DNA of 64,000 nucleotides, taken from Emiliania huxleyi CCMP1516 (lineage: Eukaryota). Both the position numbers and the translations under genes were made by a program. Under the pieces are notes generated by a model, which did no database searches, was not told the origin of the DNA, and saw nothing but the letters and a program-made list of their open reading frames with translations. The stretch spans positions 128,521-192,520 of the forward strand of contig NW_005201392.1 of assembly GCF_000372725.1 (NCBI RefSeq), in the 5' to 3' direction. Below, piece by piece: positions 4,730 through 42,020 of this stretch (its first letter is position 1; each line of letters opens with the position of its first letter).

Positions 4730-5445
4730 TGACCTGGCTCGACCCTCTCTCTCTCTCTCTCTCTTTGAGCATGGCCTCTGCCATAGCAAACCACCACGCG
4801 TCACGGTCGATTTCTTTTTGTCTGTGGAGGCGAGGCTCGAAGGGGAGGGGAGGGCGTGGGGGGGGGGAGGGGGGGGGGGACTGGGGGGGGGAGTGACCTG
4901 GGTCGACCCTCTCTCTCTCTCTCTCTTTGAGCATCGCCTCTGCCTTCATTAGCAAACCACCACGCGTGACGGGCGATTTCTTTTTGTCTGTGTAGGCCAA
5001 GCTCCAAAGGGAAGGAGGGGAAGGCCTGGGGGGGGGGGGGGGGGGTTACTCGGGGGGGAGGAAACCGGGTTGAACCCCCCTTTTTTTTTTTTGGGAAGGG
5101 CTTTGGCTTTTTTTAGAAAACACCCCGGGGGGGGGGGGGGAATTTTTTTTTGCTTTGGTGGGGAAGCCTCTAATGGAGGTTGAAGCCTTTGGGGGCTTGG
5201 GGGGAATGGGTTGGGGGGGAGANNNNNNNNNNNNNNNNNNNNNNNNNNNNNNNNNNNNNNNNNNNNNNNNNNNNNNNNNNNNNNNNNNNNNNNNNNNNNN
5301 NNNNNNNNNNNNNNNNNNNNNNTCATTAGCAAACCACCACGGGTCGCGCGGTCGATTTCTTTTTGTCTGTGTAGGCGAGGCTCGAAGGGGAGGGGAGGGC
5401 GTGGGGGGGGTGGGGGGGAGGGGGTGGGGGGGGAGGAGGGGGGGC
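4730..5445. repeat. ~150-165 bp tandem unit ((CT)n, agcaaaccaccacg, G-runs), about 3 copies, broken by a gap
   Basis: Units start at ~4730 and ~4894, with a partial third from 5323. Confidence 0.75.
5223..5322. other. Assembly gap (100 N), preceded by low-quality homopolymer-rich sequence
   Basis: Run of n characters. Confidence 0.99.
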
Positions 5446-9296: not shown

Positions 9297-12200
9297 AATG
9301 CATGTGGCGAATGCGTCGCGTGCAAGACACCTTATGGGTGCTATCCCTACGTTCTTTGGGATTATGGCGGACCACCGAACGCTGAAGATTGCATTAATTA
9401 CTTTGGTGGCATTGATTGCTCGCCGCACCTGCCGCACCCGCCTCAAATGGCACCAACTCCACCGCCATCGTTACCACCTTCACCACCTTCACCGCCGCCT
9501 TCGCCGTCTTCGCCGCCTCCCATCCCGCCGCCGCCGCTCCTCCCTGGCGGCTACTTCATCACCGGCCCGTGCTCGCTCACCGACGGCGGCTCGTGCGCCA
9601 CATCGCCAAACTACCCGAACAGCTACGGCATCAACGAGGCGTGTACCATCAGCGGCGTGCCGCCGGTCGAGCTGGAGGTGATCGGCTTTGATGTGGATGG
9701 AACCCTCTGCGCAGAGATTCTCTGCCGTCAATGCGGCAGCTGCGGTTGTGACTATCTCACCGTCAACGGCGTTAAGTACTGCGGCACCTCGGGGCCGAGT
9801 GGCGCGGTGGCGGTGGACGGCGTCATCGAGTGGTTCTCGAATGGCTACATAGTCGGGCCGGGCTGGAAGGCGCGCCCCTGGTCCCTCTCGCTCCCCTTCT
9901 TTCTCCTCTCTGATGCCCACCTCCCTCTGCCGTCAGATCTGCTGGGCGACCCGGCCGCCTTCACCGGCTTCACCGCCATCATCGCCCCCGCCTCCTCCGC
10001 CCCCGCCGGTCTCCCCCGGCTTCGATGTCGTCGCGGAAACCGAGAACGAGCTCCGCTCCCTGATCGAGGGGGTTGCTGCCAGCACCTCAATCTATCTGCC
10101 GCCGGGTGCGCACTTCGAGCTGGGCAGCGAGATACATCAACATAGCATCAGCTGCGTCTCCAACATCAATGTGACCGTCGCGAGCAGCGGCGAGGGCGCG
10201 ACGCTCGACGGCCGGGGACAGACCGGGCTCTTTTACCTCTCGGGCGGCTGCAGCCTCACCCTGCGGGGGCTGACCCTCGTCAACGGGAGGGTGGACGGGA
10301 GGATGGACGGCGGCGGCGGCGTTGTGCACGCTTACGGCGCAGGCGACGTCGAGATCATCGACTCGACGGTCAGAGATTGCTCGGCTGGCGAGTACGGGGT
10401 GCGCCGCGTAGAGCTAGCCGCACTCCAGCAGCGCCGCACGGCAGCGGGCTGAGAGATCAGAGGGTCACCCCGCTCTCTCCTCGCAACCGCAGGACGGCGG
10501 GGGCGGCGTCGTCTACGCGGAGGGCAGCGGCGCGGTCTCGATAATCGGCTCGACCGTGTCGGGCTGCTCTGCTCGAGTGCGCCGCGTAGAGCTAGCCGCT
10601 TGCAGCGGCGTACGGCAGCGGGGCGAGAGATAGAGAGGGGCCACGGGCTGCCTCACCCCGCTATCTCTCCTCGCAACCGCAGTACGGCGGGGGCGGCGTC
10701 ATCTACGCGGATGGCAGCGGTGCGGTCTCGATAATCGGCTCGACCGTGTCGGGCTGCTCTGCTCGAGTGCGCCGCGTAGAGCTAGCCGCTTGCAGCGGCG
10801 TACGGCAGCGGGGCGAGAGATAGAGAGGGGCCACGGGCTGCCTCACCCCGCTATCTCTCCTCGCAACCGCAGTTCGGCGGCGTCGTCTACGCGGATGACA
10901 GCAACACTCACGTGACCGACTCCAACATCTCCGGCTGCACTGCCACGCGAGGCGGCGCAGTGTACGTGAACTCAGGCTCACGAGCCAGCCTGGCCCGCTC
11001 AACCATCTCCAACTGCATCGCCTCAGAGTCTGGCGGCGGCCTCTACTCGGCGGGAGGGCGCACCTCCCTTAGCGACGGCACCCTCATCAGCGGCTGCACT
11101 GCACCGGCGGGGAGCTCAATCTTCCTACTCGCTGGCGAGGTCTCCTACACCCTCCCCGCCCCAGCCGGTCGCTGGCTGCCGAACGCGCGCTGCGAGGTGT
11201 ACCGGGAGGCGTGCCCTTACGATCCGAGCCTCGTCGGGGAGCGGGATAAGGCAAAGGCTTGCCTCGAGCACCGCGAAGACTGCGCGCTCAACCTCGTCGT
11301 TCAGAACAACGTCGGCCCGTGGTACTGCCAGAAGCCGACCAACGTACAGCCGTGCAACTGGGTGGACGACTCCTCCCTCCTCGGAGCGAGCATCTACCAG
11401 CTACCGCTGTTGCCCGTCGACGAGGACTTCCCTTTTGCCTGCGCCGCCGGCCTCCTCGGCTCGGCCGACCCAAAGTACCAGTCGAGCAGCAGCTGCGCCG
11501 GCCGCTGTCCCGCAGGCTCCCAATGCCCCGCAGAGGCAACCTATGAGGCGCTGCCCTGCGATGCGGGTCATCACTGCCCAAAGGGGACGAGCGTGCCCCT
11601 TCCCTGCCCCGCTGGATCGTACTCGAACGCCACCAACCTCACCGACGCGAGCGATTGCACCGACGCCTCGCCGGGCCACTTCGCCACCACGGGCTCGACG
11701 CAGCAGACGGCGTGCGCCAAGGGCAGCTACGCCGCCACGGGCGGCCTCTCCGAGTGCGAGCCGTGCGCTGGCGGGAGCTACCAGAACGACACGGGCGCGA
11801 CGTCCTGCCGCGACTGCGAGCAGGGCAGCTACTGCGCCAAGGGCGCGGCGGCGCCGCTGCCTTGCGGCGCGGGTACCTACTCGGACAAGTTGAACCTCGA
11901 CTCGGCGGGCGGCTGCGAGGACTGCCCAGAGGGCCACTTCTGCACCACCGGCAGCGTGGCTCCTGTGGCGTGCCGCTCCGGCACCTTCGCTTCCGGCTCG
12001 AACAACGCCGAGTGCGAGCCGTGCAAGGCGGGATCCTACCAGAACGCCACTGGTGCTGCCGGCTGCGTCGCGTGCGGGCTTGGCAGCTTCTGCCCGGTCG
12101 GCGCGTCCCTCGAGCTGCCCGCGACGTGCGAGCCGGGTACATACGCCAATGCCACTGACGACGACGGCTTGCCCGACTGCTTCGACTGTCCGGCGGGCTC

Positions 12201-15200
12201 GTCGTGCGGCGGCGGCGCCGCGCGTCCGACGCAGTGCGCGGCGGGCACGATCGCGCCGGCCGAGCGGATGGAGGCATGCGACAAGTGCGCGGGCGGGACC
12301 TACCAGAACGACACGGGCGCGACATCCTGTCGCGCTTGCGAGGCGGGCAGCTACTGCGCCGAGGGCGCGTCGGCGCCGCTGCCTTGCGTTGCGGGCAGCT
12401 ACTCGAACGCGACCAACCTCTCCGACGCGAGCGAGTGCACCGACGCCTCGCCGGGCTACTTCGCCACCACCGGCTCCACGCAGCAGACGGCGTGCGACAA
12501 GGGGTCGTACACGGACGCGGCCAAGCAGGGCGAGTGCACGCCCTGTTCCGGCGGCACGTACCAGGACGCGGAGGCGCAGACGGCGTGCAAGCCGTGCGAG
12601 GCGGGCGGCTACTGCGCTGTTGGCGCGGCGGCGGCGCTGCCGTGCGAGGCTGGCAGCTACTCGCGCGCCACCAACCTCTCCGCCGCGAGCGAGTGCACCG
12701 ACGCCTCGCCGGGCCACTTCGCCACCACCGGCTCCACCGAGCAGACGGCGTGCGCCAAGGGGTCGTACACGAACGAGACCAGGCAGGGCGAGTGCACGCC
12801 CTGCGCCGGCGGCACGTACCAGGACGCGGAGGCGCAGATGTCGTGCAAGCCGTGCGAGGCGGGCGGCTACTGCGCTGTTGGCGCGTCGGCGGCGCTGCCG
12901 TGCGAGGCTGGCAGCTACTCGCGCGCCACCAACCTCTCCGCCGCGAGCGAGTGCACCGACGCCTCGCCGGGCCACTTCGCCACCACCGGCTCCACCGAGC
13001 AGACGGCGTGCGCCAAGGGGTCGTACACGAACGAGACCAGGCAGGGCGAGTGCACGCCCTGCGCCGGCGGCACGTACCAGGACATGGGCGGCAAGACGGA
13101 GTGCAAGCCGTGCAAGCAAGGCAGCTTCTGCGAGCCGGGCGCGGCGGCGGCGCTGCCGTGCGAGGCTGGCAGCTACTCGAACAAGACGAATCTTGACTCG
13201 GCGGGCGGCTGCATGGACTGCCCTTTGGGCCACGCTTGCACCACTGGCAGCGCGACTCCCATGGCTTGCCGCGCCGGCACATTCGCATCCGGCTCGCGCA
13301 ACGCCGAGTGCGAGCCGTGCAAGGCGGGATCCTACCAGAACGCCATCGGTGCTGCCGGCTGCGTCCGGTGCGGGCTTGGCAGCTTCTGCCCGGTCGGCGC
13401 GTCGCTCGAACTGCCCGCGGCGTGCGAGCCGGGTACATACGCCAACGTCACGGACGGCGACGGCTTGCCCGACTGTTTCGACTGTCCGGCGGGCTCGTCG
13501 TGCGGCGGCGGGGCTGCGCCGCCGGCGGAGTGCTCGCCGGGCTCCGTCGCCGCCACGCCTGGACTCGCCAAGTGCGAGCGGTGTGAGCCTGGCACATCTT
13601 CCAGCGCCGGCAGCGAGTCGTGCAGCGAGTGCGCTGCAGGCACTTACGCCGCCAACTCCGGCCAGGGCCAGTGCGTCCCTTGCCCCCACCCCCTCAGTAG
13701 TGAGCGCGGCGCCGTCATCTGCTCCATCTGCCAGAAGGGCTTCTACCTGCTCCAGAGCGCCGACCCGGCCGACATCTTCTCCTCCCCGACCGACTACTGC
13801 AAGCCATGCCCGCCAAACGCAGAGTGCTCGGACGACACCTCGCTCGCGACCCTCGGCGTCCCAACCGGCTACTGGCGCGCCAGCCCCTCCTCCGCCGTGC
13901 TGACGGCGTGCCGCGCCTTTGGAGGGGATGGCCAGGCGGGCCAGGCGCGGTGTGTCGGCAATGTTGATCCGGGAGAGGCTAGCGGTCGGAGGGTGCAGGA
14001 GGCCGGCTTGGACTACTGCGCAGACGCCTTCGCCGGCCCCGAGTGCCAGCTCTGCCGCGAGCCGAACCACTACCTGGACGCCGACGGCGCCGCCTGCAAC
14101 GAGTGCGTCGCTGTCGGCACGGCGGCGGGGCGCATGGCGGGCACCGCCCTCGGCCTCTGCGTCGCGTTTGGCCTCGTGGCGTTGGCGTACTCAGTTCAGC
14201 GCGGGCAAACCGAGTGGAGGAAGGAGCGCTTCATCGGACTTCCCTTGCGCATCGCCGACCGCACCGGCGACGCGATTTACAAAATCGGCCTCATCCCCAA
14301 GTTCAAGATCTTGTTTGGCTTCTACCAGGTCTGCCTCGTCCTCTCCACCACCTACTCGGCGCGGCTGCCGGAACGGTACACGGGCTGGACGGAGGCGCTG
14401 GCCGAAGCCGTCTTCATCGACTGGTCGGGCGTCGTGCTGCCGGTGCAGTGCCTGCCGCACAAGTCCCGGCTCGTCGCCGTCGCGATCTCTCCCATCGGCG
14501 TCATCGCACTGCTCCTCTTTGCTGGCATTGTCTTGCGGCTCTGTGCTCGCTGGCGGCGTGCTCGGCGAGGGGCTGCGGAGCCACCGACGGCGCTGGCCGA
14601 AACTGACGATGCGGCGGTCTTTTCATGGCCTGCAGAGGTGGCGCTCGGCCTCCTCGACCTCAGGGGGGGGGGGGTTCGGGGCCAATTCTTTCTTTTCGGC
14701 CCTTTGGGGAGCGCCCCGATTTTGGCCCGGGGGTGTTTCCCGGGTCCTAACCCAAAAAAAAAAAACCCGCCCCCCCCCCCCCCCCCCCAAAACCCTTAGC
14801 TGTCGATGTGCGTGCGCAGGGCTACACCACCTCTGCGCCGGGCGAGACGCTCGCTCTGGTCGAGTACATGCGGCAGGACGCGAGCGTCGAGTGCGGCACC
14901 GACGAGCACGACTCCATCACGAGACTCGCCACCGGCTTCGTCGTCATCTGGCCGGTCGGCTCGCTAGTCCTCTACTCGGCCCTTCTTCTCGCATGCTACA
15001 AGCCGCTGCAGGCCAAGTCGCCGAACGCGCTGACGAAGGCCACCGCCTTCCTTCACCGGGAGTACAAAAGGAACTGGTACTGGTGGGAGGCGGCCGATCT
15101 GGCCCGCAAGCTCTTTCTGACGGGCTTCGTGCTGCTGGTTGCCGAGGAGGAGGACTCCTTTGTTCGTCTCGTCGTGGCGGTGCTCGTGTGTTCGTGCTAC

Positions 15201-17252
15201 GCCGTCGTGATCGCCCTGGTCCAGCCCTACAAGCGGTTCGGGGACAACATCCTCGCCGTGGTGCGCCCTTCGCCCAATCCCACACGCCCTTTGCGCTTGC
15301 TTGTGCTGCAGCTCTCAGCACACGCTTGGATCGTGGCCAGTCCATCACCCACCCCACACACGCCCTTCCCACTGCAGTCACTCTGAGCCCAACGGACGCG
15401 GCTCGCACTGCAGGCCACCAGCCTCGTCCTCCTCCTCCTCTTCCTCGGTGCCAGCTGGACCACCATCTTCCTCAACATCGAGTTGCGATTCCCCGGCGAC
15501 GAGCCGGGGCAGTCGGCCTCCGCCGTCCTCGGCTTCAGGTCTGAGAATGGACTGGTGAACTGGATGCTCGTCCTTGCTGCGGCTGCGCTCCTGATCTTCC
15601 TCGTGGGTACCATCATCGCCATCCGCCGCCTTGCCAAGGTCCCCACGATTCGCCTCGTCTTAACCAAGCAGCCCCCCGAGCTGGCTCTGGTGGAAGGCCT
15701 CACGTGGCACCTCTTCCTCTCGCACATCTGGTCAGTCCTGTGGTCAGAGGGAGAGGCGGCGTAGGAGAACCCGCCAGAACGACCCGCCACTCCGCGAATA
15801 GGTCCACCGGCCAAGACGCCGTCGCGGTCATCAAGAATGAGCTTAAGCTCTTGATCCCCGGCATCAAGATCTTCCTCGATGTGGACGATTTGAAGGACAT
15901 CGGGTCGCTGGAGGATTACGTTGACCGCACGCAGGTCATGCTCTTCTTCCTGTCGAAGGGCTACTTCCGCTCGAAGGCACTCCCCCAGCCCCTCCCTTTC
16001 CGAGAGTGCCTCGCTGTGTCGCCCACGACTACTCGTGCGCTCCTTGCCTGCAGAACTGCCTGCGCGAGATTCGGACGTCGCTCGAGAAGAGCAAGCCGCT
16101 CGTCCTCGTGCAAGAGGCGGATCCGGCCAAGGGCGGCGGGACGCTGCAGGCGCTCCCCGCCCACCCCCAGCTCTGACCCTGCGGGGATTGCTCTCGCCAC
16201 ACACGGCTCTGAGGGGCGGTGTCGCCGCCGCCGCCGCACGCCAGCACTCACTCACGCACACCGTCGCTGCACGACTGCAGGAGTTGCGAGCACAGTGCCC
16301 GGAGGTCCTCCAGCCGGAGATCTTTGACAGTGGGTGGGCGCAGACGACGTGGCACCGCATCGACGAGTATCAGCGTGTCTCGCTTAAGATCATCTCCGAG
16401 GTGCCGCCACGGACAACTCCCTGCAGCTGTTCTGCCGTCGCCTCGACCTTGACCGCCGCCCCCTCGCACCTACCCTCAGGCGCTCCTCCTCTGCTCGCCA
16501 CACTACCTGAACCTGACCTCCCTCCCGCTCTTCATCCCGGGCGAGGTCCAGGGCCAGCCGATCTCCTTCTCCAAGTCCGTCGTGCTCTGGGCCTCGCCGT
16601 TCGATGAGGGCGCAGACGAGCTGGCCAGCGAGCTCGCCACCAATTTCTCCGGCCTCACCGTCTCCACCGCCGAGGAGGCGGGCGACGCCACGCACATGCT
16701 TCTCTATCTGAACGCCGACACCTGGTCCGACGAGCGGCTGGCCGAGCAGGTCAAGCAGGCGCGCCAGGACAGGCTGAAGATCGTCATGGCGCACGAGAAC
16801 GACCTCGACCGCGGCGGCTGTGAGTTCGCCAAGTTTTTTGAGACCACGCCGCAGGAACGCTGCCGATCAGCGGTCGATCTTTTATGTCCCGCCCGCTCCA
16901 TGCCCCCCTTCCCCGCCGCCGCAGGAGCTCATCAACGCCGGGCTCTACGACGCCCTCGCCATTGCCTGCTTCCCCGGCCTGCACCATGAGGTGCGCTCCC
17001 CCGGCGGCACCTTTGCCACAGCGCCCGCCTCCTGAAGCGACTGATCTTGCACCCCCGGTCTCACAGGTGTCGCTCGTGCTGCTGGCCAAGGCTCTGGGCG
17101 CAACCCCGGTGAGCGCTCGCTCGAGCATCCGCGACTCGCTTTCGAATATCGGGCGCTTCACTACCGTGCCTCGCGGCTCGACGACGTCCGACCCAGTCGT
17201 TACCGAGGAGGATTCGCAGCTGGAGCAGCTGCCAGAGGTGGAGCAGGTGTAG
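9297..17252 (+). CDS. Large membrane receptor: CUB-like, right-handed beta-helix, Cys-rich ephrin-receptor-like (GCC2/GCC3) repeats, multi-TM region, TIR domain, second degenerate TIR
   Basis: Exons 9297-9869, 9937-10398, 10493-10576, 10683-10766, 10873-~14660, 14820-15260, 15414-15730, 15802-15976, 16054-16149, 16281-16400, 16480-16854, 16925-16990, 17067-17252. Motifs: SPNYPNSY...CDYLTVNG...GWKICW; CxxCxxGxY repeats; KFKILFGFYQV; FLHREYKRNWYWWE; HLFLSHIWSTGQD...IFLDVDDL...FLSKGYFRSKNCLRE. 14661-14797 is low-quality sequence. Confidence 0.85.
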
Positions 17253-30187: not shown

Positions 30188-31339
30188 AAATGTCGGAGGC
30201 ATGTCGGCCCATGTTCGCGATTTTGATGGCGTTGCCCTCATTGCACGTGAAACAGACCGCGCCGGCCACGCACCCTTGTTCCCGGAGGCCAACTCGAACA
30301 GGTTTGAGCAAAGGCCGCCTTCCATGGACCATGCTCGAAATGCAGCAGGAACTTAGTTGACCCTGCTCGAAGGCCGCCCTGCTCTAAGGCCGCCCTCCCT
30401 GCTCTCGGCATTGCGTTGTTGACTGATAGCACTGTCTGATCCATCCAGAAAGAGCCGTCGAGCTACATGAGACCCAAGTCGTCGTGATGTACCAGAAAAC
30501 GAAACTAGCGCCAAAATTGAGATCTCAGGATCGACATTAATTTCTCGCGCCTACTTTCGCTGCTTGAGGCTCGCCAAATAGGTCCTGCGTCTACTCGAGT
30601 ATGGCCGTGTGCAACGTCACTGTCGTTAACTGCGACAAGACCATCGCGACAAGCGCGACTCTGTTGCTTTATGCGGCAGCATTCAACGTGACTCTTGCCG
30701 TGGATGGTTAGTGACCGCGGTTGCTTACGCAATGCTACACCGTGAGCTGAGCTTCACCAGCCGTTTCTCTTCCTTCCCTTGCCTTCTCTTGCCGTCCGTT
30801 CTCTGTGCGCATTCCACTGCATGCGGCATCACACACGCGTCTTCTGCCGGGCGCGCATCTGAACTCGTACCAGGTAGGGCATCGCTTTGCTGAGAGATGT
30901 GTGTATCGCGCGCCTTGCGGGGGGCGCGCGGAAAAGAGGAACCTCTTAGCGCCCTCGCCATGGTGCTGCAAGCAGCGCCGGGCGACGACGACTTACCGCC
31001 TCCCGGTCCCCCTCGGCACACCTCCGCTGCTCAATGTTTGACGACTCGAACCCGTGAAGCTTCCCCGCGCGCGGGTTACCCCGCACACGGGTCAGCCTGC
31101 CAGCCACAAATCCACGCAAGCGTGGTCCGCGCGCATGGCATACAGGCGTCCGCCAGACAGCGCAGAGGCTAGGCGACCGGGGAAGGACTGCTCAAGGGCA
31201 ACACAGCGTCACCAGCCGTTGGCGCGCAGAACGAGTCAGCGGCCCCCGGTTGGGACGAGTGCGCGATCAGGCGCCTCAAAGACAGTTTTTTAGACGCCGT
31301 TCCCCCGGGGCGTGTTGTTCCTGTTGCGAGCAAACTCAG

Positions 31340-33427
31340 ATGTCGCATCGTTGCGAGGAGCGTCGCTGGCGTGTTGAGCAACGGCGCGCCGAGTACGGAC
31401 GCGAAGAGCGGCGATGGCGGGGCGAGCCGCGACGGCGGTCGCGATCGCGCGATGAGCCGCGGCGGGATGAGCTGCGACGGCGCGACGAGCGTTGGCAAGG
31501 GCACCATGATGGGCGGCATGACGAGCGGCGCGGCTACGACGACTCTTGGTGCAGTGGGCGCGAGCAGCGATGGCACGCTGAGCCACACGCCGCCGAGCGA
31601 TGGCGCGACGAGCCATTGCAAGGCGAGCGACGGCCGCATCATGACGGGCGGCACGTTGAGCGGCGCGGCTGCAACGACCGACCAAGCATAGGCGAGCGCG
31701 AGCGCGACTTGTACGATCGGCGCGATGATCGGTTCTACGATCCCAGGCGCGACCATGACCGGCGCGACCGCCGCGGCGAGGGGCAGCCTCAGCACAGCGA
31801 CCGCCGGTTGAGTCCGCCGATGCGTGGTGCGGGATCGCGCGACGAGAGGCACACCTCTGCTGCCGGAGGTCAGCTCGATGCTAAGCAGCTCAGCGGCCGT
31901 ATCTCGCATGCCAGCGGCGCCGACGAGCTGCTCAGGCTCTTTGCTGCCCACAGCGCGAACTTGAACCACATCCACGCTGCGAACCTGTGGAACAAACTGG
32001 GCAAGCAGCGCATCGAGCGGCGGCACGAGGGGCGGCTTGAGCAGCTGGTGCAGCGCACGCTCGACCTGGTTTCTTCGTGCCGAGCACGCGAGCTGGCCAA
32101 CGTGTCTCACGGCGTTGCAAGGTGCGGCTTGCAGGCGAGGGTGGTGCGCCCGTTGTTCGTAGCGGTGGCGGAGGCGGCGGTGCGTGGCGGGCTGGCTGGC
32201 TTCACGCCTCAAGCCCTGGCCAACACGGTGTGGGCGTATGCGACGGCGGGCGTGGCTGCGGACGCGCTGTACGCGGCGGTGGCGGAGGCGGCGGTGCGCG
32301 GCGGGCTGGCTGGCTTCAACCCTCAGAACCTGGCCAACACGGTGTGGGCGTATGCGACGGCGGGCGTGGCTGCGGACGCGCTGTACGCGGCGGTGGCGGA
32401 GGCGGCGGTGCGCGGCGGGCTGGCTGGCTTCAAGCCGCAGGCCCTGGCCAACACGGTGTGGGCGTATGCGACGGCGGGCGTGGCTGCGGACGCGCTGTAC
32501 GCGGCGGTGGCGGAGGCGGCGGTGCGGAGCGGGCTGGCTGGCTTCAACCCTCAGAACCTGGCCAACACGGTGTGGGCGTATGCGACGGCGGGCGTGGCTG
32601 CGGACGCGCTGTCCTCAGATTGGAGCGCGGCGGCAATCAACAACCGCTCTTACCCCGCATGGTGGGCCACCGGGTGGGGCGTAGCAGAGATGCTGGGCGA
32701 GCCCGACGCTGGCGGCGAGTGTTCCGATCGCGGCAGCGCATGGGCGCCTTCCCACAACGGCTCGGCAGCGGAGTGGGTCAGGCTGGAGTTTGGAGATGAG
32801 CCGTTGCGCATGATTGGCTTGCAGGTGCGCGAGGTGCTGGCTGCGCCGTTCATACTCCGCGTCGAGGTTGAGAGCGAGGAGGCGCAGCGTTGGACAATAT
32901 GGAATGGGACAGATGAGACGCCGTGTCCCGGCTGGTTTGACCTCAGCTACGACAGCGGCAGTCAGGCCATTGCCGCGGTCTACATCTTCACCCAGGCCGA
33001 CGGCTTTGAGGAGATTGATGCCGTTTCGTTGGAAGTGCCCATTCCATGCTCGCCCTCGCCGCCGCCCGAGTCACCCTCAACTCCCCTGCCCGCCTTCGCC
33101 GTGCTCACCGCGCGGCCGCTGGCCGTCGTGCTTGCGCTAGTCGCCGCGTGGCTCCTCCTCTTTGCATACCTCTGCCTGCGGGTGCGGCGACGGAGCCGAT
33201 CTGTAGGGCTGCGCGCTGCAAAGGACTTGGAGGGGCCCACACTCCTCTCGCCACCAGGTCCAGCGGCCGAACGACGGGTGGGCGAGCCGGGAAGCCCGAC
33301 GGACGCCCAAACTATAGGCCCCAGCATTGACTTGGACAGCGCCCTCCGTAGTCATGGGTGCGCTCGCCTTGTGCCTCTCGAGAGAGAGAGTCTGAGAGCT
33401 TGCACACATGCAAGGCCACATTTATAG
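31340..33427 (+). CDS. Chimeric ORF: OPR-like repeat protein N-terminus (4 repeats) fused to an extracellular-type galactose-binding-like domain, PSPPP linker and TM helix
   Basis: 31355-32611 is nearly identical to 39435 onward. Abrupt in-frame switch at 32612 to ...SAWAP...EWVRLEF...EEIDAVSL. No RAP domain. Confidence 0.6.
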   Translation: MSHRCEERRWRVEQRRAEYGREERRWRGEPRRRSRSRDEPRRDELRRRDERWQGHHDGRHDERRGYDDSWCSGREQRWHAEPHAAERWRDEPLQGERRPHHDGRHVERRGCNDRPSIGERERDLYDRRDDRFYDPRRDHDRRDRRGEGQPQHSDRRLSPPMRGAGSRDERHTSAAGGQLDAKQLSGRISHASGADELLRLFAAHSANLNHIHAANLWNKLGKQRIERRHEGRLEQLVQRTLDLVSSCRARELANVSHGVARCGLQARVVRPLFVAVAEAAVRGGLAGFTPQALANTVWAYATAGVAADALYAAVAEAAVRGGLAGFNPQNLANTVWAYATAGVAADALYAAVAEAAVRGGLAGFKPQALANTVWAYATAGVAADALYAAVAEAAVRSGLAGFNPQNLANTVWAYATAGVAADALSSDWSAAAINNRSYPAWWATGWGVAEMLGEPDAGGECSDRGSAWAPSHNGSAAEWVRLEFGDEPLRMIGLQVREVLAAPFILRVEVESEEAQRWTIWNGTDETPCPGWFDLSYDSGSQAIAAVYIFTQADGFEEIDAVSLEVPIPCSPSPPPESPSTPLPAFAVLTARPLAVVLALVAAWLLLFAYLCLRVRRRSRSVGLRAAKDLEGPTLLSPPGPAAERRVGEPGSPTDAQTIGPSIDLDSALRSHGCARLVPLERESLRACTHARPHL

Positions 33428-34192: not shown

Positions 34193-35765
34193 TCATGCAA
34201 CAGAGTACTCAGCGAGCAGCGAGGCGGTCCACGCGTCGGCCGCCCGTCGCACTCGGCGGCGCGGCTCGCTGAACACCGCACCGCCGTCCACCGAGCCGCC
34301 GGCGCCTGGCGCGCGCGGTGGCTCTCCGCACGCCGCGCACTCCCGCTGCCGCCACTCGCGCCGCACCTCGGCGTGAGGTAAGGTAAGGTGAGGCAAGCGA
34401 GCTGCGGGATGGCCGAGAGAGGGCCGAGAGGTGGCCGAGAGAAGTTGGCCGAGGGATGGCCGAGAGATGGCCGAGAGATGGCCGAGATGTCGAGCCGCGC
34501 CTCGTCGTCGCAGAGCGAGACGAGAAAGTCCCAATCGTCCGCGCCGAAGGCGCGCGCCGCGAAGAGCGGCGGCGCGCTCCGGCAGAGTAACGCCGTCCCC
34601 TCCCTCGCGCTGCGCAGCAGCTCCAGCGCCGCGTGCACCGCGCGGTCGGCGGCCTACGCGCCCAAGGTCCCGGGGTGGGTACTGTTTGCACGGGCTTGCA
34701 TCGCTCTCTTGCTCCTGGAGGGGTGTGGCCAGCAGGCTTGGGGCTCCCATCTCGGCTGCTTCTCGGCTGTTTCTCGGCTGCTTCTCGGCTGTTTCTCGGC
34801 TGCTTCTCGGCTGCTTCTCGGCTGCTTCTCGGCTGTTCTCGGCATGGGGCCGCCTGGCCAGACATCGCCTCGACCGCCTCGACGACCGCCCGGCGGTCGG
34901 ATGCCCTGCCCTTTGCATGGTAGCGAGGGCCGTACAGCGAGCGCGCGCCCAGCTCAACCAGCTCCTCCCGGCTCATGGTGTCGGGCTGCCAGTGGGAGCG
35001 GTACGGGTATGCGATGGCGAGGTCGAGGGCGACGCGGCGCGGGAGCAGCTCACGCGTGTGGAAGGCGAAGAGGTCGCGCGTGCACGAGATGCCCACCGAA
35101 GAGCTCGAGTGGTGGCACGGCTGCAGCGAGATCCAAACCTCGAGCCGGTGGGTGGGCTCCCCGCCCGCCTCCCCGCCCGCCTCCCCGCCCGCCTCCCCGC
35201 CCGCCTCCCCGCCCGCACCAGGGCGGAGGGGCAGCGACCGGATCGCGGCCAGCATTGCGCCGTCCTCCATCATCACTCTCTCCGCATGGTGGCTCTTGTC
35301 CCGATTGTGGTACCGCGCCAGCAGCAGCGGCACCGTCCCCGGCTCGTCTCCCCGGCGCGCGGCGGCGAGGCGTGCCACGATCACCGTGTTGCGCCCCTCG
35401 CACTCGTCCGGGTGGCGGAGGCAGCACAGCGGCAGCGAGCCCTCCGGCGTCTCGCGCACATGGAAGAATGAGTCGCAAAACTCAGCCGCCGACCCGAGCA
35501 GGCTCCCGCCCGGCCGGACGTCGGCGAGCGTTGAAGCGCACGGCCGCGTCAGAGTCATCTGCGTCGCGGCTGGCACACACGGTCCGCGGCCGGTGCGCCT
35601 CGGATCGCCGCCCAAAGGCCGCTGCTGAACACCACTGCCGGCCGAGCGCTGGCCCAGAGACAGCCCGGAGGCGCGCTGCTCCAAAGAAACTGCGACGCCA
35701 CCGCCACCGCCGCCGCCAGGTGCGTCGCCGACGTTGCGCCGTCGGTGCGGAGGCACCCAAGACAT
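34193..35765 (-). CDS. AID/APOBEC-like (APOBEC4-like) zinc-dependent deaminase
   Basis: Exons 35765-34854, 34653-34501, 34366-34193. Motifs: EFCDSFFHV, HHAERVM, WISLQPCHHSSSSVGISC, AYPYRSHW, AREGTALL...DDWDFL. Confidence 0.75.
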
Positions 35766-39210: not shown

Positions 39211-39419
39211 AAAGTGGGCCGCGGACACCTCGTAAATAAAATAATTTGAAACGTCGTCGAGCGCGAAAGTAGACAAACAAAGTAGTGAGGGAACAGCCTC
39301 GGGAAGGAGCTACGGTTAAATTGCTGTAACCGTGAACAGACGCCGAAGTTGACCAACATCCGCGGTTGAGGCCTCGTCGGCGTACCCGGGTTCAGTACAC
39401 TATCTCGCTCGTGTCACAT

Positions 39420-42020
39420 ATGTCCTACCTAGGTGAGGAGCGTCGCTGGCGTGTTGAGCAACGGCGCGCCGAGTACGGACGCGAAGAGCGATGGCGGGGC
39501 GAGCCGCGACGGCGGTCGCGATCGCGCGATGAGCCGCGGCGGGATGAGCTGCGACGGCGCAACGAGCGTTGGCAAGGCGAGCCGCACCATGACGGGCGGC
39601 ATGACGAGCGGCGCGGCTACAACGCCTCTTGGTGCAGTGGCCGCGAGCAGCGATGGCACGCTGAGCCACACGCCGCTGAGCGATGGCGCGACGAGCCATT
39701 GCGAGGCGAGCGATGGCCGCATCATGACGGGCGGCACGTTGAGCGGCGCGGCTGCAACGACCGACCAAGCATAGGCGAGCGCGAGCGCGACTTGTACGAT
39801 CGGCGCGATGATCGGTCCCACGATCCCAGGCGCGACCATGACCGGCGCGACCGCCGCGGCGAGGGGCAGCCTCAGCACAGCGACCGCCGGTTGAGTCCGC
39901 CGATGCGTGGTGCGGGATCGCGCGACGAGAGGCACACCTCTGCTGCCGGAGGTCAGCTCGATGCTAAGCAGCTCAGCGGCCGTATCTCGCATGCCAGCGG
40001 CGCCGACGAGCTGCTCAGGCTCTTTGCTGCCCACAGCGCGAGCTTGAACCACATCCACGCTGCGAACCTGTGGAACAAACTGGGCAAGCAGCGCATCGAG
40101 CGGCGGCACGAGGGGCGGCTTGAGCAGCTGGTGCAGCGCACGCTCGACCTGGTTTCTTCGTGCCGAGCACGCGAGCTGGCCAACGTGTCTCACGGCGTTG
40201 CAAGGTGCGGCCTGCAGGCGAGGGTGGTGCACCCGTTGTTCGTAGCGGTGGCGGAGGCGGCGGTGCGGAGCGGGCTGGCTGGCTTCACCCCTCAGGCCCT
40301 GGCCAACACGGTGTGGGCGTATGCGACGGCGGGCGTGGCTGCGGACGCGCTGTACGCGGCGGTGGCGGAGGCGGCGGTGCGCGGCGGGCTGGCTGGCTTC
40401 ACCCCTCAGAACCTGGCCAACACGGTGTGGGCGTATGCGACGGCGGGCGTGGCTGCGGACGCGCTGTACGCGGCGGTGGCGGAGGCGGCGGTGCGCGGCG
40501 GGCTGGCTGGCTTCAACCCTCAGAACCTGGCCAACACGGTGTGGGCGTATGCGACGGCGGGCGTGGCTGCGGACGCGCTGTACGCGGCGGTGGCGGAGGA
40601 GGTGGTGCGCGGCGGGCTGGCTGGCTTCAACCCTCAGGCCCTGTCCAACACGGTGTGGGCGTATGCGACGGCGGGCGTGGCTGCGGACACGCTGTACGCG
40701 GCGGTGGCGGAGGAGGCGGTGCGGAGCGGGCTGGCTGGCTTCAAGCCTCAGGACCTGGCCAACACGGTGTGGGCGTATGCGACGGCGGGCGTGGCTGCGG
40801 ACGCGCTGTACGCGGCGGTGGCGGAGGTGGCGGTGCGCGGCGGGCTGGCTGGCTTCAACCCTCAGAACCTGGCCAACACGGTGTGGGCGTATGCGACGGC
40901 GGGCGTGGCTGCGGACGCGCTGTACGCGGCGGTAGCGGAGGCGGCGGTGCGCGGCGGGCTGGCTGGCTTCAAGCCGCAGGAGCTGGCCAACACGGTGTGG
41001 GCGTATGCGACGGCGGGCGTGGCTGCGGACGCGCTGTACGCGGCGGTGGCGGAGGCGGCGGTGCGCGGCGGGCTGGCTGGCTTCAAGCCGCAGGAGCTGG
41101 CCAACACGGTGTGGGCGTATGCGACGGCGGGCGTGGCTGCGGACGCGCTGTACGCGGCGGTGGCGGAGGTGGCGGTGCGCGGCGGGCTGGCTGGCTTCAA
41201 CCCTCAGAACCTGTCCAACACGGTGTGGGCGTATGCGACGGCGGGCGTGGCTGCGGACGCGCTGTACGCGGCGGTGGCGGAGGCGGCGGTGCGCGGCGGG
41301 CTGGCTGGCTTCAAGCCGCAGGAGCTGGCCAACACGGTGTGGGCGTATGCGACGGCGGGCGTGGCTGCGGACGCGCTGTACGCGGCGGTGGCGGAGGTGG
41401 CGGTGCGCGGCGGGCTGGCTGGCTTCAAGCCGCAGGCCCTGGCCAACACGGTGTGGGCGTATGCGACGGCCGACTATTATCACCAGGCGCTGCTTGCCGA
41501 CTGCTCGCGCGTGATCAGCGACTCGCTCGCGCGGGATCCGTCGAGGTGGAGCGAGGAAGCCCGCTCTCAGCTGCACCAGTGGCAGCTCTGGCTCTCCCTG
41601 GAGCGAGGAGCAGACGGGCAGCAGCACCTCCTCTCCGAGTCCCAGCGCAAGCTCTGCTGCGACGCCATGCAAGGCACCGAAGTTACGATCTCGCGCTTAC
41701 AGCGCTCCGTCGCGGCTGCCCTCGCCGCCGTCCAGCACGGCTTCGAGGAGGAGCACCTCGAGCCGCGCACCGGCTACTCGCTCGACCTGGCGCTGCCCTC
41801 TTCACGCGTCGCTGTCGAGGTGGACGGCCCCTCTCACTTCCTGCTGCCCGACGGCCGGGGCGTGCGCAAACCCAATGGGCCAACGCTGCTCAAGCGGCGC
41901 CTCCTCAGGGCGGCTGGCTGGAGGGTGATCAGCGTTCCATTCTACGAGTGGGACGGCTTCGCGACAGCCAATGGGCAGCAAACCTACCTGGAGAGGGCGG
42001 TCGCCCCGCTGTTGGGCTAG
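39420..42020 (+). CDS. Intronless OPR-like (38-aa repeat) RNA-binding protein with C-terminal RAP domain
   Basis: 11 near-identical 114-bp repeats GLAGFxPQxLxNTVWAYATAGVAADALYAAVAEAAVRG plus one degenerate repeat. RAP motif YSLDLA...VAVEVDGPSHF...TLLKRRLL...GWRVISVPFYEW. Confidence 0.9.
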   Translation: MSYLGEERRWRVEQRRAEYGREERWRGEPRRRSRSRDEPRRDELRRRNERWQGEPHHDGRHDERRGYNASWCSGREQRWHAEPHAAERWRDEPLRGERWPHHDGRHVERRGCNDRPSIGERERDLYDRRDDRSHDPRRDHDRRDRRGEGQPQHSDRRLSPPMRGAGSRDERHTSAAGGQLDAKQLSGRISHASGADELLRLFAAHSASLNHIHAANLWNKLGKQRIERRHEGRLEQLVQRTLDLVSSCRARELANVSHGVARCGLQARVVHPLFVAVAEAAVRSGLAGFTPQALANTVWAYATAGVAADALYAAVAEAAVRGGLAGFTPQNLANTVWAYATAGVAADALYAAVAEAAVRGGLAGFNPQNLANTVWAYATAGVAADALYAAVAEEVVRGGLAGFNPQALSNTVWAYATAGVAADTLYAAVAEEAVRSGLAGFKPQDLANTVWAYATAGVAADALYAAVAEVAVRGGLAGFNPQNLANTVWAYATAGVAADALYAAVAEAAVRGGLAGFKPQELANTVWAYATAGVAADALYAAVAEAAVRGGLAGFKPQELANTVWAYATAGVAADALYAAVAEVAVRGGLAGFNPQNLSNTVWAYATAGVAADALYAAVAEAAVRGGLAGFKPQELANTVWAYATAGVAADALYAAVAEVAVRGGLAGFKPQALANTVWAYATADYYHQALLADCSRVISDSLARDPSRWSEEARSQLHQWQLWLSLERGADGQQHLLSESQRKLCCDAMQGTEVTISRLQRSVAAALAAVQHGFEEEHLEPRTGYSLDLALPSSRVAVEVDGPSHFLLPDGRGVRKPNGPTLLKRRLLRAAGWRVISVPFYEWDGFATANGQQTYLERAVAPLLG

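Follow-up and report, generated by a model that had tools for sequence, protein, structure and literature searches.

In the haptophyte Emiliania huxleyi, the 64-kb stretch of DNA analysed here (hereafter, the window) carries a deaminase gene that is real, expressed and intact. Algal AID/APOBECs are a known clade; the present protein belongs to a structurally distinct branch, probably of that clade, marked by extra helices following loop 7 and by the absence of a loop-3 cysteine. A sequence-only reading of this DNA had recognized the deaminase motifs, and that part stands, but it missed the loss of the loop-3 cysteine, the helical insert, a second Cys/His cluster and an N-terminal motif of the Ded1/DDX3 type. 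With a gene model and a targeting hypothesis for an expressed algal member in hand, the function of the clade becomes directly testable.

Gene model, expression and neighbourhood

The gene runs on the minus strand from 35765 to 34193 (window coordinates) and comprises three exons separated by two GC-AG introns, a habit of Emiliania-like haptophytes. Exon 1 (34854..35765) encodes residues 1-304, comprising the N-terminal motif, a likely disordered tail, the deaminase core as far as loop 7 and the greater part of the insert; exon 2 (34501..34653) encodes residues 305-355, with helix 4 (REG, 321-323), strand 5 and helix 5 (DWDF, 344-347) as in the homologue model; and exon 3 (34193..34366) supplies residues 356-412, including the last helix with its RRAAD, and the stop codon. 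The joined frame is 1239 nt long and specifies 412 amino acids plus stop, with no internal stops. It had been claimed from the letters that the REG and DWDF helices become visible only after splicing, and they are indeed in frame only once the introns are removed; the other motifs named at that time are likewise all present where they had been placed, on the minus strand. Intron 1 (34654..34853, 200 nt) and intron 2 (34367..34500, 134 nt), both minus-strand and GC..AG, are skipped in contigs of four out of four runs, which come from four studies, with exactly 134 and 200 nt removed at the intron positions. At the 200-nt joint, the short side measures only 26 letters in three of the four contigs and 152 in the other. 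The four runs are RNA by guess, their records bearing no RNA label; a control stretch shows patchy coverage (15-22 of 30 bins) as well as another GT..AG joint, and thus the runs behave as RNA would. The start methionine is probably the one placed by homologues beginning MPYVPPHLR, and exons 2 and 3 are covered by full-length homologues at 42-52 % identity. Six exonic differences appear in the run contigs, three silent and three residue-changing, which are too few to interpret.

The neighbours of the deaminase gene are FAST/RAP-repeat, SNF2, SDR and FSH1 genes. A deaminase gene cluster was considered and rejected, since there is no paralogue in the 64-kb window. Two similar plus-strand genes with FAST-kinase-like/DUF1601 repeats flank the deaminase gene (31058-33424 and 39336-42017); both have an RD/RE-rich start, the second has a RAP domain, and the pair look like a local duplication. 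Elsewhere, a long plus-strand frame (10786-14796) combines a beta-helix with eight ephrin-receptor-like cysteine repeats, a 76-nt GT..AG intron at 16988-17065 is skipped in contigs of two of the four runs and so marks an expressed gene, and a run of 100 N at 5223-5322 represents an assembly gap.

Fold, catalytic core and the distinct branch

The encoded protein is predicted to have the AID/APOBEC fold, with its core of five strands and its pair of helices at the C-terminus. Structure comparison was done with the AlphaFold model of a full-length homologue, P0009, which is 50 % identical over 343 columns and has a pLDDT of 92.5. All six chains matching that model at Z of at least 8 are AID/APOBEC, namely APOBEC3G (Z 16.5, rmsd 2.9, 183 residues aligned), APOBEC3H (16.4), AID (16.3), APOBEC1 (15.2), APOBEC2 (12.3) and the APOBEC3G N-domain (10.9), and Foldseek agrees. 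The earlier AID/APOBEC assignment is thereby borne out, at Z 10.9-16.5 versus at most 6.6 for all others, the best of which is CDADC1 (6.6), followed by dCMP deaminase (5.7) and TadA (4.5); TadA/ADAT and the archaeal tRNA C-to-U enzymes as a set score 4.1-5.1. A free-nucleotide deaminase (CDA, dCMP or RibD) or a tRNA deaminase, either of which would have spoken against that assignment, is in no case the best structural match (Z at most 6.6). A model of the gene's own exon 1 (pLDDT 87, without the last helices) finds APOBEC3G, AID, APOBEC3H and APOBEC1 at the top, with Z 7.6-9.0, and non-APOBEC chains at no more than 6.0. In the Atlas, the top match is a cluster in which 19 % of the members carry APOBEC4 (score 0.93), and the nearest named clade is APOBEC4-like.

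By sequence, the protein has 26 homologues at E<=7e-32 and 40-64 % identity, which discounts a chance match, and one of them is named APOBEC-like by UniRef; a homologue from Prymnesium parvum is 50 % identical. A profile of 13 sequences retrieved 362 representatives at E<=0.001, and further work was done on the best 150 of those 362. The curated AID/APOBEC Pfam cut-off is passed by 23 of 103 scanned proteins, which are more distant relatives, and Pfam APOBEC4 is matched by many relatives, nearly all below cut-off; 14 close homologues have sub-threshold APOBEC matches only. Searches of Pfam and of PDB sequences with the gene's own exon pieces returned no Pfam family and no deaminase in PDB, and a profile of 108 relatives compared with PDB by sequence returned no APOBEC.

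Both halves of the AID/APOBEC hallmark, HxE and PCxnC, are present. The first is HAE at 35280..35288 (minus; residues 160-162), where, by homology, H160 is a zinc ligand and E162 the catalytic glutamate; the second is PC-x10-C at 35082..35120 (minus; PCHHSSSSVGISC, residues 216-228), where C217 and C228 are the corresponding catalytic zinc ligands. The catalytic residues are kept in 102 (H), 111 (E), 111 (first C) and 115 (second C) of 115 aligned rows. At the putative cytidine-pocket positions, whose register was set by a weak HMM alignment with APOBEC3H, N154 is found in 109/115 rows and Y255 in 104/115. Upstream lies FCDSFFH (residues 96-102), and the last helix, helix 6, carries the RxxxD element RRAAD (34249-34235, minus; residues 395-399), with R395 kept in 95/115 and D399 in 89/115 aligned homologues. 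The spacer of ten between the zinc cysteines is the shortest and commonest in the family (37 of 111 rows; range, 10-29). As a novelty it was rejected, a long spacer being common to the whole clade and published. Loop 7 reads YRSHW (34989..35003, minus) and was aligned with loop 7 of APOBEC3H (RLYYHW) by the same kind of weak HMM alignment (E about 0.1); the structural alignment stops at model residue 189 (H258) on residue 115 of macaque APOBEC3H. Between helix 2 and strand 3 is an unconserved, variable loop of 12-nt tandem repeats encoding GGEA units (35154..35228, minus).

The branch was defined from an unrooted LG+G4 tree of 115 rows and 227 columns, built from 116 proteins of which one was dropped as gappy, and containing no identified cnidarian or APOBEC4 sequence and no outgroup. 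The present protein and 22 others form one branch (SH-aLRT 97), whose sister is a group of nine with C-x-E for H-x-E in eight. At the loop-3 position, N154-R155 (35301..35306, minus) retains the conserved asparagine and lacks the NC cysteine; the asparagine is found in 22/22 branch members, and the cysteine in 0/22 branch members, 0/9 sister rows and 62/83 other rows. Because NC is present in APOBEC4 and cnidarians, loss of this cysteine is preferred over gain. The position aligned to the tryptophan of the APOBEC SW-S-PC motif is Leu, Val or Met in 22/22 branch members and Tyr in 62 of the 83 other rows. Directly after loop 7, a branch-specific insert (34854..34988, minus, continuing into exon 2) forms two extra helices in both the P0009 model and the model of the gene's own exon 1. 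The spacer from W259 to G323 that holds it is 63 residues long here, 59-67 in nine branch members, 53-114 in five sister rows and 15-28 in 79 others. Loss of the loop-3 cysteine, together with the post-loop-7 helices, would give the substrate-selecting surface a different shape. The sister group, for its part, carries a Gly-rich insert after loop 7. The swap of H to C in HxE, giving C-A-E, is seen in P0083-P0085, P0088, P0098, P0102, P0104 and P0114 and, separately, in P0100 and P0112; it apparently arose independently in those two groups.

A further cluster of residues at 35400..35477 (minus), C97, H102, C115 and C122, accompanied by C114, is predicted to form a second, structural zinc site at helix 1/loop 1. 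The first four occur together in 100 of the 104 homologues that cover the region, and so they likely form the site by themselves; C114 is typical of the branch (18/22 members). The NC cysteine tracks an N-terminal CxC..H, with 57 of 65 rows agreeing, although these amount to three independent pairs only (sign test, p 0.25), a hint that the NC cysteine and CxC..H may once have been parts of one third zinc site that was lost in the branch.

The N-terminal motif, possible links to RNA and possible functions

The protein starts with MSWVPPHRR, in which WVPPHRR (35739..35759, minus; residues 3-9) resembles the Y[VI]PPHLR motif of Ded1 and DDX3 and is a predicted tether to eIF4A/eIF4E. The motif as it stands here matches five of seven consensus positions, with the final arginine kept and a tryptophan in place of the tyrosine; many homologues have the exact consensus. 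In the form [YWF][VI]PP[HS]xR, it occurs in 29 of 163 homologues, as compared with 0.015 expected in shuffles, and it is nearly always N-terminal; the 134 homologues that lack it include many that are cut at the N-terminus. It is found on both sides of the tree, NC-bearing rows included, and a slightly looser pattern is carried by 10 of the 12 branch members whose N-terminus is long, as well as by 12 of the 29 complete rows from the rest of the tree. Across the six frames of the 64-kb window, the motif occurs once. It is followed by a Gly/Arg-rich, likely disordered linker (35556..35738, minus), with one RG here and RG/RGG-rich in several homologues. In yeast Ded1, the same motif binds eIF4A (PMC11917139, PMC7343385), and in vitro the final arginine matters for that binding and the tyrosine matters little (PMC7343385); in human DDX3X, the motif has been mapped as an eIF4E site (PMC9642913). 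No paper noting a Ded1/DDX3 motif on an APOBEC was found in a literature search that covered few subscription papers, and the words 'eIF4', 'CCCH' and 'fused' are absent from the main text of Krishnan 2018 (PMC5889660).

Domain fusions and loop 7 offer further hints of a link to RNA. Among the 103 scanned relatives, CCCH fingers lie above cut-off in two and a CCHC knuckle in one, and sub-threshold finger fusions add a CCCH in one and a C2H2 in two. At one of 15 loci, a branch member is fused with an FtsJ-like methyltransferase in a single frame of 1249 aa (L001:410-4159); the Pfam E for the FtsJ-like part, 0.0026, falls below cut-off, and 30 of 30 Atlas matches are FtsJ. The CCCH/CCHC and FtsJ fusions suggest a link to RNA. 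The components of the L001 frame are an RD/RS-rich tail, the methyltransferase and the deaminase, and the same methyltransferase occurs without a deaminase as tandem pairs in L002-L008. Loop 7 is near-invariant in the branch as YRxHW, and its HW, along with the basic last helix, resembles the RNA-binding surface of APOBEC3H, as far as the weak alignment goes; in APOBEC3H, H114/W115 and arginines of helix 6 bind RNA (10.1101/203000). APOBEC3H is an enzyme with a DNA substrate that is inhibited by RNA binding and uses RNA for localization (10.1101/203000); hence, association with RNA does not show RNA editing.

The reading that we favour, tentatively and while stopping just short of giving it an even chance, is a zinc-dependent C-to-U deaminase that is tethered to mRNA by its Ded1/DDX3-type motif and edits RNA. 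By homology, H160, C217 and C228 would hold the catalytic zinc, with E162 as the proton shuttle; T127, N154 and Y255 would line the cytidine pocket, and C97, H102, C115 and C122 would hold the second zinc and stiffen loop 1. With the help of zinc, cytidine in a single-stranded nucleic acid would be deaminated hydrolytically by an enzyme whose loops 1, 3 and 7 would be remodelled. The motif, for which eIF4A or eIF4E is the predicted partner, would dock the enzyme on eIF4F-bound mRNA; together with the fusions, it points to a cytoplasmic mRNP location and an RNA substrate, and single-stranded cytidines would then be edited in the RNA held at the docking place, with host, viral or transposon mRNAs as possible targets. 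It is a good deal more speculative, and on balance rather improbable, that a widespread class of algal and protist APOBECs copies the Ded1/DDX3 docking motif, rides the initiation complex and edits host or giant-virus mRNA near the cap; we are just as doubtful of its corollary that the APOBEC is aimed by eIF4F itself and not by a dedicated RNA-binding cofactor. If an eIF4A-type tether does work, it would be a new way of aiming an APOBEC, one that would matter both for how algae defend themselves against giant viruses and for RNA-editing tools.

Three other functions have to be weighed. The best structural matches being DNA deaminases, the protein could be an APOBEC3-like mutator of single-stranded DNA that acts on viruses or retroelements, with RNA and eIF4F binding serving only to place or restrain it. 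That APOBEC3H is localized by RNA yet edits DNA (10.1101/203000), that many paralogous lineages exist, and that Krishnan 2018 (PMC5889660) proposes defence roles for such clades are all in keeping with this idea, which we nevertheless consider rather unlikely, for the branch is conserved (40-64 % identity, with near-invariant loops) and the gene is single-copy within the 64-kb window, unlike fast-evolving defence expansions. On these two grounds, a settled role fits better than an arms race, without being decisive. The absence of both the loop-3 cysteine and the aromatic residue before Q-PC, along with the C-x-E of the sister branch (8/9 rows), could instead bespeak a catalytically weak or silent binder of nucleic acid that, like APOBEC2 or APOBEC4, would regulate translation by binding; human APOBEC4, the nearest characterized relative, has no detectable deamination in vitro (PMC4889046). 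We judge this unlikely, as the histidine, the glutamate and both cysteines are kept almost throughout, and cysteine can itself hold zinc, as it does in cytidine deaminases of the CxE type. Least probable, and very unlikely by our estimate, is a housekeeping C-to-U modifier of a stable RNA, whether tRNA, rRNA or snRNA. The high conservation within the branch and the fusion with an FtsJ-like methyltransferase, whose family counts tRNA and rRNA enzymes among its members, would suit such a role, but the fold is far from TadA/ADAT and from the archaeal enzymes that make C-to-U changes in tRNA (Z 4.1-5.1), a motif of the eIF4A type speaks for mRNA, and the deaminase family is patchy and multi-copy.

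Distribution and relation to known systems

Members of the family occur in chytrid fungi, with NC and PC-x10-C, in Globomyces and Boothiomyces (P0096 = KAI8892828, P0219 = KAJ3325935; also P0231), and in the cryptophyte Chroomonas (P0112), whose protein has a CCCH-like finger and C-x-E. In the unrooted tree, the chytrid-like rows group near the present branch, which joins NC-bearing chytrid-like and cryptophyte rows (SH-aLRT 97). Chytrid fungi are outside the range listed in Table S1 of Krishnan 2018 (PMC5889660), a figure legend of which allows for loss in fungi, and among the papers that a literature search on the subject listed, none deals with APOBECs of chytrids. Together with hundreds of protist-like lineages, the chytrid and cryptophyte members strain the published idea of a few cnidarian transfers and fungal loss. 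Pattern scans, which are weak, found no family member in viral contigs or in prokaryote genomes; viral proteins compared by fold likewise gave no match at E<=0.001. A set of short relatives (225-290 aa) without NC comprises P0146, P0154, P0157, P0162, P0175, P0177, P0191, P0195, P0209 and P0214; some have an N-terminal YxPPxxR, several have a composition of the AT-rich type, and they were not found in the viral contigs scanned. These short relatives are possibly virus-borne. The giant-virus-like contig L011 (28 % GC, intronless, with N-myristoyltransferase, HNH and RING genes) bears the same FtsJ-like methyltransferase as the L001-L008 loci (L011:3509-4837), at 76-79 % identity; its final 50 residues stand at the front, an arrangement that suggests circular permutation along with a recent transfer from host to virus. 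In another alga, integrated viral DNA has been reported as hypermutated at A and not at C (10.64898/2026.01.13.699255).

Long zinc loops in algal APOBECs are already in the literature. Iyer 2011 (PMC3239186) described AID/APOBEC-like proteins that carry an insert within CxxC and an N-terminal zinc insert, from Nematostella, Micromonas and Emiliania, and Krishnan 2018 (PMC5889660) defined a cnidaria-algae-APOBEC4 clade that has five copies in Emiliania and two in Prymnesium and a CxnC with n=2-25. The novelty implied by the sequence-only reading therefore falls away, the insert between the zinc cysteines having been described in both 2011 and 2018. With that clade the present protein shares the C and H that end helix 1 (C97, H102), a loop-1 C (C115), HAE, the RxxxD of helix 6, haptophyte hosts and the CxnC spacer, its n=10 lying within the published 2-25. 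It differs in having N154-R155 and no loop-3 NC cysteine, and in place of the clade's N-terminal CxxC..H it has C76-A-S with no subsequent His, although CxC is kept in some branch members. Since NC, a defining feature of the clade, is missing, we class the protein as a variant of that clade and, more broadly, as an AID/APOBEC. The Emiliania row in the alignment of Krishnan 2018 (PMC5889660) is a different paralogue, with NC and x17 where the present protein has x10 and is some 40 residues longer after loop 7; XP_005772315, which is near-identical to that row, is 26 % identical to the present protein and likewise bears an N-terminal YVPPHRR.

Vertebrate APOBEC4 has in common with the present protein a long PC..C spacer and a second metal site near loop 1, the ligands of which are arranged otherwise (Krishnan 2018 Table S1, PMC5889660). 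The structures of APOBEC3H, APOBEC3G and AID share the fold, including its two C-terminal helices (Z 16.3-16.5 for the P0009 model), and, in the case of APOBEC3H, the HW of loop 7; however, they are only 12-17 % identical, have PCxxC where PC-x10-C is found here, and lack both the loop-1 zinc insert and the loop-7 helices. Like Ded1 and DDX3, the protein has, close to where a Gly/Arg-rich tail begins, a version of their seven-residue pattern; in those proteins the pattern belongs to a helicase, and here it belongs to a deaminase, reads WVPPHRR, with five of the seven positions kept, and is predicted to bind eIF4A or eIF4E.
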